Shown: positions 33,095 to 54,955, numbered from the stretch's first letter. The stretch is DNA of 64,000 nucleotides from an uncultured Lentisphaeria bacterium (GCA_949287225.1 CASEFP010000120.1:265-64264), one strand, 5' to 3'. The notes: a model not told the origin generated them from the letters alone. Numbers and translations are program-made.

Positions 33095-34612
33095 TTATTT
33101 GGCCGCGATGCTTTTTTCGTCCGCAAGTTCGATGACGTTTTCCGTGTTTTTCTTGGGTTTCGCCCGCGTCAGCCAGCCGGAACGGTGAATCGTCAGGATC
33201 GAGTAGGGACCGATCCAGGAGAGCGATAGGAAATTGAACACCCCGTAGACATACGACCAGAGCGCCTCCTTTTTGCTGTATTTGCTGGCGTAGACGAACG
33301 CGGGAAGCGTGGACCAGATCAGCGTCGCCATGACCGAGGCATACAGAAACGCCAGCGGCGAAACCGCCAGACAGTAAAGGGTCGATCCCACAAACAGCAT
33401 CGGCGTCAGTGTCCAGAGCGTCTGCATCACCAGATTGATCTGCATTCCGAGCAGATCCTCGTCGGCAAAATCAATCCTGCGGAACGCGAAGGTGAACATC
33501 TCCAGATTCTCGCGGACATTGCTTCTTGACCAGCGGAGAAACATTCTGCACAATCCGGCGTAATCCTTCGGCACCTCCGTGTAGACAAGCGCGCTTTTCT
33601 GGAAGACGACCTGATGCCCTTCGCGCAGAATGATGTTGGAGATGGCGCGGTCCTCCCCGATGTTCGCGGGCCGTCCCATGAATTTCTGGTTGACCCATTC
33701 CGGCATGAACGGCATGATGACGCTTCTGCGGTAGGCGCTCAGCGCTCCCGGCGTGCAGAAGACCGAGTGCACCATGCTCTGCGCGGAACGGAGAAACTCG
33801 AAACTGAATACGAAATTCACATCCAGCATCCGCGGAATCACGCCGGAATTGTTCAAAACACGGATATTGCCCGCGACGCCGCCGATTTTTTCTTCGCGCA
33901 CAAGCGGTGAGACGATCTTCCGCACCGTGTCAGGCAGAACGATCGAATCGCTGTCGATCGTGACGACGATTTCCGCTTCCGTGCTTCGGAATCCCTGATA
34001 AAGCGCATTGCGTTTCCCGCCGTTGCTCGTCAGGTTCAGTGCACGGATCCTGCCGCCGGAGGATTCCACCGCATCTGTAATCCACTTCCATGTGTCGTCG
34101 CAACTGCCGTCGTTGACGGCGATGATTTCCATTTTTTCCGGCGGATAATCGCTTTTGAGAAGACTCCGGAGCGTCAGGAGAACCTGCTTGCCTTCATTGT
34201 AGGCGGGAACGACAACGGCACAAGTTGGAAGCTCTTCATCGGTGACCTCCTCATACGCGCGGTAATGGAAGGCAAGAACAATCTGCCAGGCGAAATAAAA
34301 GAGATTGCCGGCGAGAAGAATCAGACTGAATACCAGAACCCCGAGATCAAGGGGATCGAGAGTGCTGAAAAAGGATTCCGTCCATGCTGTCAGCGTCAGG
34401 GAGGCGATGGCGGCAAGGACCGTCAGCCCCAGAAGAATCCGGACCGTATTGTTCAGCTGAATGTTTTCTGTGATTTCCTCTGTGTCTTTCCCGGCGGATT
34501 CCATATAATGTTCCAGCAGGTCTGCCTGACGCTGGAGCACGTCGATCAGCTTCCGAAGTGCCACGAGTATCAAGAACAGAAAGAAATGTTTTTTCTTTTG
34601 CGATCTGAGCAT
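33095..34612 (-). CDS. Processive family-2 glycosyltransferase (membrane-embedded polysaccharide synthase; NodC/HAS/PgaC-like)
   Basis: 505 aa with N-terminal and C-terminal TM clusters around a GT-A domain. Motifs are VVVPAYNEG, AVNDGSCDDT, VTIDSDS, GEDRAISN and the QxxRW-type motif FLRWSRS. The start codon is uncertain. Confidence 0.85.
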   Translation of the reverse strand: MLRSQKKKHFFLFLILVALRKLIDVLQRQADLLEHYMESAGKDTEEITENIQLNNTVRILLGLTVLAAIASLTLTAWTESFFSTLDPLDLGVLVFSLILLAGNLFYFAWQIVLAFHYRAYEEVTDEELPTCAVVVPAYNEGKQVLLTLRSLLKSDYPPEKMEIIAVNDGSCDDTWKWITDAVESSGGRIRALNLTSNGGKRNALYQGFRSTEAEIVVTIDSDSIVLPDTVRKIVSPLVREEKIGGVAGNIRVLNNSGVIPRMLDVNFVFSFEFLRSAQSMVHSVFCTPGALSAYRRSVIMPFMPEWVNQKFMGRPANIGEDRAISNIILREGHQVVFQKSALVYTEVPKDYAGLCRMFLRWSRSNVRENLEMFTFAFRRIDFADEDLLGMQINLVMQTLWTLTPMLFVGSTLYCLAVSPLAFLYASVMATLIWSTLPAFVYASKYSKKEALWSYVYGVFNFLSLSWIGPYSILTIHRSGWLTRAKPKKNTENVIELADEKSIAAK

Positions 34613-36413: not shown

Positions 36414-36974
36414 ATGGAAATTCTCGGCGGAACGGCAAAAGGGATTGTTCTGAAAGCGCCTCCCGGAGCATTGGTGCGTCCGACCGCGGTGCGTGCGCGC
36501 CGGGCGCTCTTCGACAGTCTCGGCGACCTTTCCGGGAAGAGGATCTGTGACCTTTTTTCGGGGAGCGGTGCTATAGGGTTTGAATCGGCAAGCCGGGGGG
36601 CGGCGTCCGTTCTGTTTGTCGAGAAATCGCCGCAGTCGCTTGCCGCGATCCGGTCAAATCTGAAAAAAGTCGAGCCGCATTGCCCGGATTGCACATTCAC
36701 GCTGTTCAGCGGCGTGCTGCCGGAATGCGCTGTGCGTCTTGCATCCTTTCCCGCTCCGGATATGATCTTTGCGGATCCCCCGTATGCGGAGTCCCCGGAA
36801 CTGCTGGACGGGCTTCTGCATGAGAAATCATTCTGCACCTGGACAGCGGGAGCACTTCTGATCTGGGAGCTTCCGGAAACACATTTCCAGCTGAAGGTTT
36901 TTCCCGCACCATGGAGAATTCAGACCGTGAAGACGTTTGGGGGAACACGTTTTCTGCTGATCGGAAAAGTCTGA
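36414..36974 (+). CDS. rsmD: 16S rRNA (guanine966-N2)-methyltransferase RsmD
   Basis: ORF 36393..36974. The start is taken at MEILGGTAKG (ATG 36414), just after the guaA stop. Motifs are RPTAVRARRALFDSL, DLFSGSGAIGFESASRGA and the catalytic DPPY. Confidence 0.85.
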   Translation: MEILGGTAKGIVLKAPPGALVRPTAVRARRALFDSLGDLSGKRICDLFSGSGAIGFESASRGAASVLFVEKSPQSLAAIRSNLKKVEPHCPDCTFTLFSGVLPECAVRLASFPAPDMIFADPPYAESPELLDGLLHEKSFCTWTAGALLIWELPETHFQLKVFPAPWRIQTVKTFGGTRFLLIGKV

Positions 36975-37150
36975 TTTTTTCCGGACGGAAGGTTTTTTCC
37001 CGGAAAAACGGAAAAAAAAGCGGGAAAATCTGTGTGGAATGGCAAATTTTGATTTGACAAGAAGAATTGTGAATGTAGTGTAAGTAAATTGAAACTGGCA
37101 TCAGGCAGAAGTTTTTTGTAATAATTTTTTTGACAGGAGAGAAACGAGTC

Positions 37151-38416
37151 ATGGGTATTTTGAACAGAGTCATCAACATCCTGATTTTGCTTGCGGCAAT
37201 CGCGGCAGTTGTGTTTTCCTATATGCTGTTCAGCAAGCGCAATGAGCTCACGGACGGATGGCGCAAGATGGCGGAGGCGATCAATGCCACCGCCGCAACC
37301 CTGGACGACAAAAGCGCTTCCGGAACAAAGGCCGCTCAGGAGCTGGCGACGGACAAGCTCAAACATACCGAATATGCAAATCTCGATCAGGTTCTGCCGA
37401 AACTCAAGGACAATGCCTCCAAAATTGTCAAGCAGCGCAATGATCTGGCAAAATCCCTTCAGGATGCCGCGAATACGCTGGAAATCGCCGGTGTGAATGC
37501 CAAGGACTTCCAGAATGTCACCACTTATGAAGGCAAGAACAAGGATCTCAGCGGAAAAATCTCCGCATTCAAGAGCAATCGTGACAGTGTGTTTGCCAAT
37601 TATGTCCGGACCGGCAGTGTCGCAGGAGCCTCCATTACAGCAAATGAACTCAAAAACCCCGCTCAGGCGAATGCCGCCGCACAGAAGGTTAATGCCAAAA
37701 TCAACGACATCAAGGCCCGCCGGGACCGCTTTTCCTCGCATATTGCTGCCGTCAGCCGGACGCTCGGCGTGAAGAACCCGAATCTTGCCGGTGCCAATTA
37801 CGCTTCCGAATTGAATACCTCTCTTGCCGCGGTCCGGAAGGTGAAGGCGGAGGCTGATGCCACGAAAAACGCTCTGGCGGCGGAAAAGAGGAAAACCGCT
37901 TCCCTGAACAACCAGATTGCCGCACACCGCAAGACGATTTCCAATCATCTTGCCGATATCAAATCGAAGCAGAAACGGATTGATGAACTCCTCCGCGTGA
38001 TTTCCGATGACGGGAAGTCTCACATCCCTGCAAAGCTGCTTAAGAGCAGCGATCCCGAATGCTATGGCTATGTCAAAGGGAAAATTGAATACATTGACAA
38101 GGATTACGGCTTTGTCACCATCAATGTCGGAAAGAAATACGAATTTGTTCAGAAATACGGCATCAAGGACAACAAGGTTCCGTTCCCGCTGCCTGTCGGC
38201 AAGATCATGACGATCGCCCGCGGATTGAACAGCGACAGTCCCGAATTCATCGGGAAACTGCTTGTCACGAAAGTGGATGACTACAATGCGATCTGCAATC
38301 TTGTCAGCGGAAAACTTTCCGATCTGAGAGTCGGCGATGATGTTTATTTCGCAGCGGAGGACATTGCCGCCGCAACAGGAAAAGCGGATGTCCAGAAGGC
38401 TCCCGCCAAGAAATAA
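37151..38416 (+). CDS. Membrane-anchored coiled-coil protein with a C-terminal beta-rich domain, unknown function
   Basis: ORF 37130..38416. The start is taken at MGILNRVINILILLAAIAAVVFSYMLF (single TM; ATG 37151 preceded by AGGAGA). A roughly 270-aa Ala/Lys/Asn-rich helical region follows. The last roughly 110 aa are beta-rich (GYVKGKIEYIDKDYGFVTINVGKKYEF...VGDDVYF). Confidence 0.7.
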   Translation: MGILNRVINILILLAAIAAVVFSYMLFSKRNELTDGWRKMAEAINATAATLDDKSASGTKAAQELATDKLKHTEYANLDQVLPKLKDNASKIVKQRNDLAKSLQDAANTLEIAGVNAKDFQNVTTYEGKNKDLSGKISAFKSNRDSVFANYVRTGSVAGASITANELKNPAQANAAAQKVNAKINDIKARRDRFSSHIAAVSRTLGVKNPNLAGANYASELNTSLAAVRKVKAEADATKNALAAEKRKTASLNNQIAAHRKTISNHLADIKSKQKRIDELLRVISDDGKSHIPAKLLKSSDPECYGYVKGKIEYIDKDYGFVTINVGKKYEFVQKYGIKDNKVPFPLPVGKIMTIARGLNSDSPEFIGKLLVTKVDDYNAICNLVSGKLSDLRVGDDVYFAAEDIAAATGKADVQKAPAKK

Positions 38417-38428
38417 GGAGACGACGTC

Positions 38429-38536
38429 ATGTATGCTTCCAAGTTTTTTACAGCCTGCACGATCCTGACTTTTCTCCTTCTTGTTGCCGTGCTTGTTCTG
38501 CAGGCGCTTGAAATGAAGGCCTATGAAATGTTCTGA
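38429..38536 (+). CDS. 35-aa single-TM mini-protein (not in ORF track)
   Basis: The ATG at 38429 lies 8 nt after AAGGAG (38415-38420). Translation is MYASKFFTACTILTFLLLVAVLVLQALEMKAYEMF, followed by a stop. It sits 12 nt after the stop of the preceding gene. Confidence 0.45.
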   Translation: MYASKFFTACTILTFLLLVAVLVLQALEMKAYEMF

Positions 38537-38624
38537 CTCTTTCCACACAGGAGGAGCAGATACAGAGGAACCGTCCGGCGCCAGGCCGTGACGGTTCTTC
38601 TGCGTTAAGGAGGATATATCTGTG

Positions 38625-38780
38625 ATGAGAATGTGGATTGCCGTTGTGATTCTCGCCTTTGCGGGGATGTTTCTTGCGGGATGCACCGATTATGAACGAG
38701 CGGGGGTGAATCCCCGTCCATTCAATGAACCCAGAACCTGGGAGATCAATCCTTACGGCCCGAATATGTTCCAGAACTGA
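38625..38780 (+). CDS. 51-aa mini-lipoprotein (not in ORF track)
   Basis: AAGGAGG (38607-38613) lies upstream of GTG 38622 / ATG 38625. Translation is MRMWIAVVILAFAGMFLAGCTDYERAGVNPRPFNEPRTWEINPYGPNMFQN, with a canonical lipobox LAGC. Confidence 0.5.
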   Translation: MRMWIAVVILAFAGMFLAGCTDYERAGVNPRPFNEPRTWEINPYGPNMFQN

Positions 38781-38800
38781 GAGGTTCAGAGGAGCGGAAG

Positions 38801-39697
38801 ATGAAATTTCTTTTGTATCTGATCCTTTTCTGCTCCGTGCTTTGTGGAACGGCTTCTGACGGGGCAACGGAATATACCGGCGTTGTCCGGCGCGCGGGAG
38901 CGGTGAATCCCGTGAAGAATGCGACTTATGAACTGTTTGTCTTTGTGAATGACGTGCAGGTTTATCCCCGGAAACTCAGGAAGGGATTGCGGAATTTCCG
39001 GATCGGCGACAGGTTCCGCTTTCATTACCGTCCCGGCGACCAGCTCCGCGTGATTTTCTGCCGGAAAACCATTTTGGGATACACGATTCTCCTTGACGCC
39101 GGATCCGCTTCGCCGGATGCGCTGGGCGAGCTCTTCGGAATGGTAATGAAAACAAAAGATGCGACGGTGGAGCTGGCTCTTGCCATACCGGAGGGGAAAT
39201 ACAAAATCACGTTGAAACGCTCCTTTTTCGCGTATGAGGACGCAGTGGCGTGCGGCGGTACTGTCAAGGGGGAGGATTTCAAGCGCAGAGTTGCGGATTT
39301 CCTGATCCGTCTGCAGGAGGCGTCATCGGCGGACCGGTCGCGGATGCTCAAGGAACAGGCGTTCCGGGAACTTGCCGATTATGCCGCGCAGTCCGTTGAA
39401 AAACTCGATCATCGGATTGTCGTGCGCCAGAACGGGGATGTGATTTTTGATTCCTGGGGGGAGGGATACCGTGGAACGGGGCGGGATGTGGATTGGAAAA
39501 ACATCTCTTTTGAAATGGACTGGCGGCTCGGCGACCGGATAGATGTGCTTTTCCTGGATGCGGATCTGCTGGATGACGATGTCGTTTTCCGGCGTTTCAC
39601 GAACACCCCGTTTTCCATTCAGATGCTGAACGGAACTGTTTCCGGCGGTATTCTGTCGAATTCCGGAGTCGTTTTTTCCACGGAATATCTGAAGTAG
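38801..39697 (+). CDS. Secreted hypothetical protein
   Basis: 298 aa with a signal peptide (MKFLLYLILFCSVLCGTASDG). It is on the same strand as the three preceding genes, 20 nt after the mini-lipoprotein stop. I recognise no family. Confidence 0.62.
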   Translation: MKFLLYLILFCSVLCGTASDGATEYTGVVRRAGAVNPVKNATYELFVFVNDVQVYPRKLRKGLRNFRIGDRFRFHYRPGDQLRVIFCRKTILGYTILLDAGSASPDALGELFGMVMKTKDATVELALAIPEGKYKITLKRSFFAYEDAVACGGTVKGEDFKRRVADFLIRLQEASSADRSRMLKEQAFRELADYAAQSVEKLDHRIVVRQNGDVIFDSWGEGYRGTGRDVDWKNISFEMDWRLGDRIDVLFLDADLLDDDVVFRRFTNTPFSIQMLNGTVSGGILSNSGVVFSTEYLK

Positions 39698-39800
39698 GCA
39701 TTTTTTCTTTTCCGCTTCCTTCAGGATTCTTGCGCTCCGGGGATTGTAATTTTATGGTTTTGGAGTTATTTTAAATTCAGAATATCACGTTGATTTAAAA

Positions 39801-41528
39801 ATGTCGAAAGGTTGTTCTGTTATGAATGCGAAAAAAGAGCCCGAGGTAAAAATGGAGGAATCCTGCCGTAAAGCCCTTCTGAATGGAAAGTATCCATTGA
39901 CTGCGCCTGAATATTATAATTTTGCCTTTGATGTTGTGGATAAAATCGGGAATGAGGACCGCAACCGCCTTGCGCTGATCTGGGTGAACCAGCATGGCGA
40001 CGAGAAGAAATTCACGTTTCACGACCTTTCCAAACTCTCCAATCAGGCGGCGAATCTTCTGATCAAAAACGGCATTACCCGCGGCGACCGTGTCTTTCTG
40101 CTTCTGCCGCGCATTCCTGAATGGTGGATCTTCTCTCTTGCGCTGATCAAACTCGGTGCGATTCAATGCCCGTCCCCGGTTCTTCTGACACCGAACGACA
40201 TCCGCCAGCGCATCCAGTTCGGGCGTTTCAAAATGGTGATTGCCGATCCAGAGAATGCGGAAAAGGTCGATGAGATTTTTGACGACTGCCCGACGCTGAG
40301 CAAACGCGTGCTTGTCGGCGGTGAGGAGCGCTGCGGCTGGGTCTCCTACTTTAAGGAGATCCGCAATACGACCGCGCTTTCGCGTCACCGCGTGATGAAT
40401 CCGTTCCCGTTCCGTAGCAAGTCCAGCGATCCGATGCTGATGCTGTTCACTTCCGGAACCAGCAAGGTGCCCAAGCTGGTGCTTCACAACTACGCCTATC
40501 CGATCGGGCATTCCATCACGGCGGAGCTCTGGCACGGACTCGGTCCCGGCGACGTGCACTTCACGGTTTCCGATACGGGGTGGGGCAAGAACATCTGGGG
40601 CAATTACTTCGGACAGTGGATCATGGGAGCATGCGTCTTTATTTTCGACGTGCGCGGCAAGTTCCATGCCGAGGAACTGCTGCCCATTCTGGAGAAATAT
40701 GAGATTACCTCCTTCTGCGCGCCGCCGACGGTTTACCGGATGCTGGTGCTGCACGACCTGACGCGCTTCGACTTCAAATACCTCAAGCACTGCACCGCCG
40801 CCGGAGAGGCGCTTCATACGGAGACCTCCCGCCTCTGGCGCGAGGGAACGGGGCTGACCATCCGCGAAGGTTATGGACAGACCGAAACCGTCTGCATGAT
40901 TGCCACGTTCATGGGCGACGCCGTCAAACCCGGTTCGATGGGAAAGGCCTCTCCTGGCTGGGAGATCGAGCTGCATGACGACGACGGCAATCCGATTCCG
41001 GACGGCGAAAACGGCAGAATCGCATTGAACCTGAAAAACGGCCGTCCCGTCGGACTGATGGAAGGATATGTGAACTGCGAGGAGGAGAACCAGAGAAGTT
41101 TCATCAACGGCTATTACTATACCGGCGACAAGGCGTGGCGCGATGAGGACGGATATTTCTGGTTCGTCGGACGCAACGACGACATCATCAAGAGCTCCGG
41201 CTACCGCATCAGCCCGCAGGAGGTCGAGGAGGTCATCATGCAGCATCCGTCGGTTCACGAGGTCGCTGTTGTCGGTGCGCCGGACCCGCTCCGCGGCTCG
41301 CGCATCAAGGCATATATCGTGCTGAAACCCGATTACGATCCGACGGAATCGCTTGTCCGCGACATCCAGCGCCATACCAAGGAGTTGACCGCGCCCTATA
41401 AGTATCCGCGTGAAATCGAGTTTGTCAAGTCGCTTCCGAAGTCCTATGCGGGCAAGATCAAGCGTGACATTCTGCGGAAACATGCGGAAAACGGCGGCCC
41501 GCTGATCACGGCGGTTGGCGACCGGTAA
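39801..41528 (+). CDS. AMP-forming acyl-CoA synthetase (ANL superfamily; medium-chain/acetyl-CoA-synthetase-like)
   Basis: 575 aa with AMP-binding motifs LMLFTSGTSKVPK, YGQTET, YYTGDKAWRDEDGYFWFVGRNDD and SSGYRISPQEVE. The start codon is uncertain (ATG at 39801, 39822 or 39852). Confidence 0.88.
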   Translation: MSKGCSVMNAKKEPEVKMEESCRKALLNGKYPLTAPEYYNFAFDVVDKIGNEDRNRLALIWVNQHGDEKKFTFHDLSKLSNQAANLLIKNGITRGDRVFLLLPRIPEWWIFSLALIKLGAIQCPSPVLLTPNDIRQRIQFGRFKMVIADPENAEKVDEIFDDCPTLSKRVLVGGEERCGWVSYFKEIRNTTALSRHRVMNPFPFRSKSSDPMLMLFTSGTSKVPKLVLHNYAYPIGHSITAELWHGLGPGDVHFTVSDTGWGKNIWGNYFGQWIMGACVFIFDVRGKFHAEELLPILEKYEITSFCAPPTVYRMLVLHDLTRFDFKYLKHCTAAGEALHTETSRLWREGTGLTIREGYGQTETVCMIATFMGDAVKPGSMGKASPGWEIELHDDDGNPIPDGENGRIALNLKNGRPVGLMEGYVNCEEENQRSFINGYYYTGDKAWRDEDGYFWFVGRNDDIIKSSGYRISPQEVEEVIMQHPSVHEVAVVGAPDPLRGSRIKAYIVLKPDYDPTESLVRDIQRHTKELTAPYKYPREIEFVKSLPKSYAGKIKRDILRKHAENGGPLITAVGDR

Positions 41529-54869: not shown

Positions 54870-54955
54870 GCCGAAGTGGCGGAATGGCAGACGCACTAGA
54901 CTCAAAATCTGGCGCTCTTACGGGCGTAAGGGTTCAAGTCCCTTCTTCGGCACCA
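54870..54955 (+). tRNA. tRNA-Leu (anticodon CAA), CCA encoded
   Basis: The acceptor stem is GCCGAAG/CTTCGGC. The anticodon stem is CTAGA/TCTGG with loop CTCAAAA (anticodon CAA). It has a long variable arm (GCGCTCTTACGGGCGT), a T arm GGG-TTCAAGT-CCC, discriminator A and a terminal CCA. Confidence 0.93.

Follow-up and report, generated by a model that had tools for sequence, protein, structure and literature searches.

A conserved three-gene unit in Lentisphaeria predicted to encode a periplasmic stalk protein, a membrane micro-protein and a small lipoprotein

Four genes at the locus and a conserved unit of three

We analyzed a stretch of DNA of 64,000 nucleotides (nt) from an uncultured Lentisphaeria bacterium (GCA_949287225.1, CASEFP010000120.1:265-64264), referred to here as the window, in which four genes follow one another on the plus strand between positions 37,151 and 39,697. 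The first, g1 (37151-38416), encodes a predicted bitopic stalk protein of 421 amino acids (aa), as judged from its open reading frame (ORF), alignments, and an AlphaFold2 (AF2) model. Twelve nt past its stop codon begins g2 (38429-38536), which encodes a 35-aa micro-protein with a single transmembrane helix and was identified by its ORF, a hidden Markov model (HMM), and codon comparison. The third gene, g3 (38625-38780), encodes a 51-aa lipoprotein precursor with the lipobox LAGC and its Cys codon at 38682-38684; the fourth, g4 (38801-39697), encodes a 298-aa protein, predicted to be secreted, with two beta-sandwich domains according to AF2 and Foldseek. A Shine-Dalgarno-like motif precedes all four ORFs. 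An earlier note, written from this sequence alone, had described the same four ORFs at these places and lengths and read them as one trans-envelope or cell-surface complex; its plan of g1 (an N-terminal transmembrane helix, a helical region, and a beta-rich C-terminus) is confirmed by the AF2 model, and its 51-aa lipoprotein with a LAGC lipobox is found as described.

Comparison with other genomes indicates that the conserved unit is one of three genes, g1-g2-g3 (the triad). Contigs with g1 relatives at 36-87% identity always have a 35-aa ORF after g1 and then a small lipoprotein ORF. We scanned the GTDB species genomes with a degenerate DNA pattern of the g1 juxtamembrane motif, obtaining at least 119 loci, at least 103 of them with a g1 homologue; all locus counts given here (97/98, 5/115, 27/100, and 71/104) rest on the matches listed from that scan. 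Where at least 600 nt of DNA lie downstream of g1 (98 loci), HMMs find both g2 and g3 downstream of it in 97, and g4 is present in 5 of 115 g1 loci, all of the window's clade with g1 about 84% identical or more. From these counts we conclude that the unit consists of three genes and that g4 is a recent addition. The triad is kept from 87% g1 identity down to about 25%, across differing flanking genes, with a median g1-g2 spacing of 18 nt, and two remote loci from a profile search keep the order rsmD-g1-g2-g3. It is very probable that g1-g2-g3 is a real, conserved, periplasm-facing unit. The four-gene unit of the earlier note is not borne out, and the synteny check across related genomes that it proposed succeeds for g1-g2-g3 and fails for g4.

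A word-indexed search returned 78 clusters of g1, all unnamed or labelled Lentisphaeria, and an exhaustive search using a profile of the g1 C-terminal domain returned 187 clusters at 50% identity, nearly all of 400-500 aa with a common N-terminal transmembrane motif. A further search with an alignment of the C-terminal domain added only 11 short fragments lacking taxonomy, and a cluster look-up for 10 remote g1 homologues gave no names. The titles of the g1 loci among the matches listed read Lentisphaerota, Lentisphaeria, Victivallales, Victivallaceae, or Victivallis, with a few 'uncultured bacterium', and include Victivallis vadensis DSM 14823 (L078) and strain zth2; the remaining pattern matches, in other phyla, have no g1 ORF. 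Because the scan lists only part of the matches and its pattern misses divergent N-termini, we limit the likely breadth of the triad to genomes labelled Victivallales or Lentisphaeria and do not extend it to the whole phylum. One genuine g1-g2-g3 locus (L115, JAKJHH010000125.1) lies in a metagenome-assembled genome labelled 'Verrucomicrobia bacterium', the sole such label among the matches listed; either the label is coarse or the family may reach beyond Lentisphaerota.

The encoded proteins

The AF2 model of g1, built from an input alignment of 73 sequences (mean predicted local distance difference test score, pLDDT, 84), has a long helix at residues 2-55 that includes the transmembrane segment, further helices at 72-109, 126-158, 170-205, and 217-284, and beta strands spanning 309-399 within a six-stranded beta-barrel at about 302-400. 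In the alignments, the transmembrane helix (about residues 7-28) is nearly invariant, with the consensus ILNRIINILILLAAIAAVVFSYxLF across the 73 sequences, and the juxtamembrane K29-R30 is invariant; polar residues in this region are N5, R6, N9, S23, and Y24. Conservation is strongest in the transmembrane helix and the first 60 residues, not in the distal part. From about residue 28 to 216 (37232-37798) run tandem helical repeats, three to four copies of about 47-65 residues each, supported by hhalign comparisons of consecutive segments (P 6.5e-6 to 5e-4). The first helical module (GW..M..AI...D...) occurs in four copies in a 633-aa relative (P0224) and in six in a 770-aa relative (L070), and lengths in the g1 family range from 364 to 780 aa. 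Many remote members (e.g. P0094, P0102, P0140, P0166, P0232) have long acidic low-complexity C-terminal tails that terminate in a hydrophobic/acidic motif (DDILIEE, DFDDFSL, GDFEEE); the window's g1 has a short Lys-rich tail instead.

Homology suggests that the stalk and barrel of g1 lie in the periplasm. In three relatives (P0205, P0211, P0225), a cleavable signal peptide replaces the transmembrane helix while the GW..MA motif and the barrel are kept. The barrel cysteines C304 and C382 are invariant in the window's g1 subfamily; across the family, both are present in 75 sequences, a single one in about 18, and neither in about 200, and this joint gain or loss is the pattern expected for a disulfide. 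Because relatives carry cleavable signal peptides and the two cysteines are present or absent together, g1 is predicted to be periplasmic. We also considered an EzrA-like cytoplasmic topology and rejected it, as it is contradicted by the homologues bearing signal peptides. Cytoplasmic exposure comes to fewer than about 15 residues for the three proteins of the triad together; the triad, nearly without cytoplasmic residues, would therefore act in the membrane and periplasm, which supports the original suggestion that these products face the envelope. A further relative, P0169, also has a signal peptide and carries the barrel four times in tandem.

The codon comparisons indicate that both micro-proteins are real genes under strong purifying selection: between the window and locus L005, the codons of g2 differ 18 times synonymously and 3 times non-synonymously, and those of g3 11 and 3 times. 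The g2 family has the consensus MFNSKFFTV...Q.LEM..Y.LF, and its conserved segment is juxtamembrane; if g1 is periplasmic, the g1 Lys-Arg pair and the g2 Q..E would both lie at the periplasmic face of the membrane. An apparent in-frame fusion of the g1 barrel to g2 (...TPVKQLRGEKNMFSSKLFT...) occurs in a metagenomic protein of 168 aa (P0130; compare L032); it may be natural, or an artefact of read-through or sequencing.

The g3 product is predicted to be a lipoprotein from its lipobox: the window's LAGC fits the pattern [LVI][ASTVI][GAS]C, and the residues up to the Cys are LSGC, LAGC, AGGC, AAGC, or similar in nearly all of 93 unique members. The +2 residue is Thr or Ser (Thr in 58 of the 93) and never Asp. 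In the window, the mature protein is 32 aa long (CTDYERAGVNPRPFNEPRTWEINPYGPNMFQN); in the family the median is 30 residues, with the consensus CTEYERRG[YV][SN]P.P.N.P..WE.NPYG..RN. Gene callers often miss g3, which is uncalled in several loci and was found there by reading the DNA directly. The window's g3 has a Shine-Dalgarno sequence, AAGGAGG (38607-38613, plus strand), read from the sequence, 11 nt before the ATG at 38625 and 8 nt before a GTG at 38622 that is an alternative start. In L003, L008, L009, and L010, an ATG within the conserved C-terminal codons of g2 (Y-G-M-F: TATGGNATGTT) opens the g3 frame and overlaps the g2 stop, and translational coupling of g2 and g3 is possible in these clades.

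As had been suspected, the libraries and PDB profile searches place none of the four proteins in a named family. Against Pfam, NCBIfam, PADLOC, and PHROGs, g1 gave only coiled-coil noise (RasGAP_C, SMC/Rad50, LmuB), and g2, g3, and g4 gave no match at all. Pfam searches with 10 remote g1 homologues likewise gave coiled-coil noise only, profile searches of the PDB sequences yielded similar noise or no match, and literature searches on Lentisphaerae signature proteins and the Victivallis envelope turned up nothing on these protein families. Two specific candidates were rejected: PilZ, as its RxxxR and DxSxxG motifs are absent by reading, and an anti-sigma or signalling role, as there is no cytoplasmic domain.

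Foldseek, run on the g1 and g4 models as the earlier note had advised, returned weak matches to barrels of the FlgT/F1 kind for g1 and matches to C2 domains for g4. For g1 it aligns the beta domain only. The best matches are the middle domain of FlgT (3w1e, E 9e-4), 8z5n (E 1.5e-3), and 5b0o (E 2.6e-3), followed by the N-terminal barrels of FliI and of F1 alpha and beta at E about 1e-2, among them many F1 structures. Overall the matches span E 9e-4 to 3e-2 at probability 1.0, over 90-130 columns with root-mean-square deviations of 3-9 A and 9-18% identity, a weak likeness at the level of fold for which homology is not established. The barrels of FlgT, FliI, and F1 are small and six-stranded; they pack next to one another in rings or provide a platform for docking.

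In the AF2 model of g4 (pLDDT 79), beta-sandwiches at residues 23-142 and 203-296 are joined by helices and follow an N-terminal signal-peptide-like segment. Foldseek matches the model to tandem C2 domains (probability 1.0, E 5e-5 to 7e-4, identity 8-14%) and to single C2 domains with TM-scores of 0.5-0.64. Like the tandem C2A-C2B of extended synaptotagmin and the C2 of cPLA2, the model shows eight-stranded beta-sandwiches, two in all; unlike C2 domains, g4 is bacterial, secreted, confined to a few close relatives, and without a match to the Pfam C2 profile. The word-indexed search found only 9 clusters of g4 homologues, all at 57% identity or more, and among the inspected contigs with g1 at 36-87% identity, g4 occurs only in the 87% relative. 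In the window it begins 20 nt past g3 with no terminator in the gap, and it holds the same position in L005 and L006. Outside the window's clade, a terminator-like hairpin follows g3, and unrelated or convergent genes come next. By this distribution, g4 was appended late to the operon's 3' end and lies outside the conserved core. An internal duplication of g4 had also been proposed: the motif pair is present, one motif in each beta-sandwich of the model, and sequence comparison gives the duplication marginal support (BLASTP E 0.25; hhalign P 0.0028 over 45 columns).

Promoter-like block, hairpin, and flanking genes

A promoter-like block (37054-37081, plus strand) sits in the spacer between rsmD and g1, about 70 nt before g1 begins, with the -35 element TTGACA at 37054-37059, a 16-nt spacer, and the -10 element TAGTGT at 37076-37081; alternating T- and A-runs precede it. 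Of 9 diverse loci, 7 can be aligned over the pattern TTGA[CA]A-N16-TA[GA]T[GA]T, some of them with g1 just 36-50% identical, and this conservation argues for a dedicated promoter. A generic sigma-70 scan did not list the block. The gene rsmD lies directly upstream of g1 in 27 of 100 loci, and housekeeping genes (valS, guaA, rsmD) surround the operon in many. The earlier note had placed the genes with guaA-rsmD, an association that, given the unit's own promoter-like element and the rsmD count, is positional only. An in-frame TTG at 37130 was considered as the g1 start and has no support in the homologue alignments.

Between g2 and g3 lies a GC-rich RNA hairpin (38563-38602, plus strand) with a 17-bp stem, a 5-nt loop, and one bulge. 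The arms at 38568-38575 and 38590-38597 are exact, and the full stem pairs 38563-38579 with 38585-38602. For the g2-g3 spacer the folding energy is -40.7 kcal/mol (z = -5.4), a stability that none of 200 shuffles reached. The window's U-tract is degenerate (UUCUUCUG, inside the 3' arm, and then CGUUAAGG); close relatives have a T7-T8 run, and in the window's clade the element is intergenic. Requiring a hairpin of -10 kcal/mol or stronger with a T-run directly after it, between the g2 stop and the g3 Cys codon, we found the element in 71 of 104 loci, compared with 9 of 309 control segments of matched length taken from g1 coding DNA. Of the 57 unique positive loci, 47 have a T-run that begins no more than 45 nt ahead of the Cys codon and hence inside the codons of the g3 signal peptide, and where the hairpin overlaps codons the signal peptides contain mirror-like strings (TAV..TAVFL, AAA..AAAFF). 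In the g3 5' regions of L100, L014, L042, and L024, for example, the strings AAAVLAAAFF and TAVLMTAVFL are found, and RNA structure and signal peptide use the same nucleotides. When codon order was shuffled, 40 of 87 regions were more stable than 95% of their shuffles, where about 4 would be expected; the median z-score was -1.3. The conserved hairpin looks like a terminator that limits read-through, although terminator activity is itself deduced from sequence. The idea that this hairpin modulates read-through thus gains exact arms and comparative support from the 71 loci, and is at its weakest in the window, where the U-tract has decayed.

On the 5' side of g1 lie GMP synthase (guaA) and RsmD (PF03602); on the 3' side of g4 lie an AMP-binding acyl-CoA synthetase and then, on the opposite strand, ppk and ppx. 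Divergent from guaA, at 33095-34612 on the minus strand, is a gene for a 505-aa family-2 glycosyltransferase with several transmembrane helices and a chitin-synthase- or hyaluronan-synthase-like profile. Exopolymer production is known for the phylum Lentisphaerota, and this enzyme may be relevant to it. A 588-aa ORF at 36920-38686 on the minus strand runs antisense to g1; we rejected it as a real gene, as the conserved frame is that of g1 on the plus strand. Similar long antisense ORFs over guaA, the acyl-CoA synthetase gene, and ppk are, with it, probably non-coding by-products of codon bias in a GC-rich genome. An Rfam search of 36500-40000 with E values up to 1 gave only two sub-threshold chance matches, and a tRNA-Leu(CAA) at 54870-54955 is the sole tRNA in the window.

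Possible function and comparison with known systems

We favor a reading in which the triad forms a periplasmic stalk complex that acts as an envelope tether or spacer, with a probability of roughly 0.4. The triad would be an independent operon, served by a promoter of its own and restricted to Lentisphaeria/Victivallales, encoding a membrane complex that lies almost wholly outside the cytoplasm. In this complex, g1 would be anchored in the inner membrane with its N-terminus inside, sending a modular helical stalk into the periplasm with a small beta-barrel at its end. The micro-subunit g2 would pack on the near-invariant transmembrane helix and juxtamembrane segment of g1, with K29-R30 facing the conserved Q..E of g2. 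After lipidation, g3 would be a lipopeptide of about 30 residues, probably in the outer membrane, serving as a lipid-anchored ligand of the stalk, and the distal barrel of g1 would be its likeliest docking site. The three would hold the two membranes together or at a distance by a logic comparable to that of TolA-Pal, Lpp, or PqiB-PqiC. Leaky termination at the hairpin and U-tract that separate g2 from the mature part of g3 might keep g3 below g1 and g2, and g4 would be an accessory periplasmic protein that one clade has added at the operon's 3' end. The physical interaction of the three proteins, the outer-membrane site of g3, and the role as tether or spacer are what we infer; the 'trans-envelope complex' of the earlier note is plausible in the same sense. 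A stronger version would make the triad an undescribed, lineage-defining trans-envelope apparatus, in which a module-tuned stalk and a ring-forming barrel capture an outer-membrane lipopeptide to do the job of Lpp or Tol-Pal, with lipopeptide dosage set by a terminator in the lipopeptide's own signal-peptide codons; this we regard as doubtful.

Several observations weigh against the tether or spacer. The invariant Lys-Arg pair right after the g1 transmembrane helix violates the positive-inside rule for an N-in protein and, taken alone, suggests a cytoplasmic C-terminus. The P0130 fusion, if real, puts the N-terminus of g2 in the periplasm, opposite to what is assumed here. Depending on how lipoproteins are sorted in this phylum, g3 may remain in the inner membrane. 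Mirror-tree partial correlations between the parts of g1 and g2 or g3 are all alike (0.28-0.43) and do not discriminate; for g3 the value is 0.36 with the g1 N-terminus and 0.43 with the barrel. The fold matches of the barrel are weak and its fold is generic, and a consensus terminator scan called no terminator at the window's hairpin, where the U-tract is degenerate.

If all three proteins stay at the inner membrane, the triad could scaffold or regulate, from the periplasmic side, a cell-wall, division, or secretion machine, in a role like that of FtsB/FtsL/FtsQ, MreC/RodZ, or PilN/PilO/PilP, with g3 bound near the juxtamembrane segments. The peak of g1 conservation at the membrane, the juxtamembrane position of the conserved g2 segment, the housekeeping neighbors in many loci, and the near equality of the two g3 correlations all favor such a scaffold. 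Against it, divisome, elongasome, and pilus genes are not consistently adjacent, Pfam gives no MreC, DivIC/FtsB, PilN, or PilO above noise, and expansion of the stalk modules is easier to explain for a spacer. For MreC specifically there is no PF04085 match and no MreC structure in the top 50 Foldseek matches; mreB was seen only in L001 and L002, about 3 kb off on the opposite strand, and is not conserved there. We consider the scaffold unlikely. It is still less probable that g1 is an energy transducer like TolA or TonB, its polar transmembrane helix docking into a stator of the ExbBD, TolQR, or MotAB type encoded elsewhere and its stalk passing force to an outer-membrane partner via the barrel and g3. 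The TolA-like overall plan of g1, the polar residues in a near-invariant transmembrane helix, and a lipoprotein partner, as with Pal, would suit this role. The helix has neither the Ser/His (SHLS) motif through which TolA couples to TolQR nor an SxxxH motif, though, with no His in any of the 73 sequences; g1 and 10 remote homologues have no TolA/TonB match in Pfam or NCBIfam at E up to 0.1-1; the C-terminus is a barrel, and the transmembrane partner that is encoded is a 35-aa peptide. No stator gene adjoins the triad in any inspected locus, and no ExbB/TolQ, ExbD/TolR, TolB, or OmpA-like genes are present in the flanks of 12 annotated loci, the rest of these genomes not having been searched.

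The original four-gene trans-envelope or cell-surface complex, with g4 as an integral member, is similarly improbable. The same strand, the short terminator-free gap after g3, the signal-peptide-like segment and confident two-domain model of g4, and its constant position in L005 and L006 speak for membership, but g4 is found in only five loci of the window's clade among the matches listed and in 9 homologue clusters, the operon ends after g3 elsewhere with a terminator-like hairpin or a convergent gene, and a core subunit would not be absent from about 95% of the family. Finally, g1, g2, and g3 could be mere neighbors with unrelated functions and the hairpin a plain end of the g1-g2 transcript or a by-product of codons, given that Ala- and Phe-rich signal peptides can yield GC hairpins and T-runs by chance and that the median shuffle z-score is modest. 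This is highly improbable: 97 of 98 loci keep the order, orientation, and tight spacing although their flanks have turned over completely, the loci with the T-run in signal-peptide codons leave no space for a g3 promoter, and 40 of the 87 regions outdo 95% of their codon shuffles against about 4 expected.

How the inner and outer membranes are linked and spaced is poorly understood in the Planctomycetes-Verrucomicrobia-Chlamydiae (PVC) group, and the triad is a concrete candidate structure. It is near-universal in the Lentisphaeria/Victivallales genomes examined and has no annotation, Pfam or NCBIfam family, or solved relative; it includes two micro-proteins of the kind that gene callers often miss, and it is present in a cultivable organism, V. 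vadensis DSM 14823. The hairpin and U-run embedded in the signal peptide put RNA structure and protein sequence on the same nucleotides, a possible device for setting an expression ratio. Even if its function is mundane, the triad adds new protein families for annotation.

Each part of the triad can be set beside a known system. The hairpin resembles intra-operon intrinsic terminators (attenuators) in having a GC-rich stem and then a U-run between genes with no space for a downstream promoter; it differs in that most triad loci embed the element in the signal-peptide codons of g3, and in the degenerate U-tract of the window. Like AcrZ, KdpF, and CydX, g2 is a one-helix peptide of 35 aa that adjoins the gene of its presumed partner and is conserved with it; it has no sequence relation to them, and its partner has a single helix rather than being a polytopic transporter or oxidase. 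The g1 barrel differs from FlgT, F1, and FliI in having no PF02874 match, ATPase domain, or flagellar gene context. The MCE bridges (PqiB-PqiC, LetB, Mce) share a transmembrane anchor, a small beta-barrel with long helices, a lipoprotein in the operon, and a length set by the number of modules. In g1, by contrast, the order of domains is reversed, helices first and barrel distal, no permease of the PqiA/MlaE type is encoded, and g1 gives no sign of a hydrophobic tunnel; there is no MlaD/MCE match in Pfam and no MCE structure among the top Foldseek matches of g1. With TolA, g1 shares a bitopic plan in which a minimal cytoplasmic part and one conserved transmembrane helix are followed by a long helical domain rich in Ala and Lys and by a small domain at the C-terminus, and g3 parallels the lipoprotein partner of the TolA-Pal system; that E. 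coli TolA is also 421 aa long is coincidental. Unlike in TolA-Pal, the lipoprotein has only 30 residues and no OmpA-like domain for binding peptidoglycan, a transmembrane partner of 35 aa replaces TolQR, and the C-terminal fold of g1 is a beta-barrel rather than the alpha-beta fold of TolA/TonB. Because every sequence, motif, or gene-context test for a known system failed, we regard the triad as a candidate stalk-plus-lipoprotein system made of undescribed protein families, one that belongs to none of these known systems and at most works like them.

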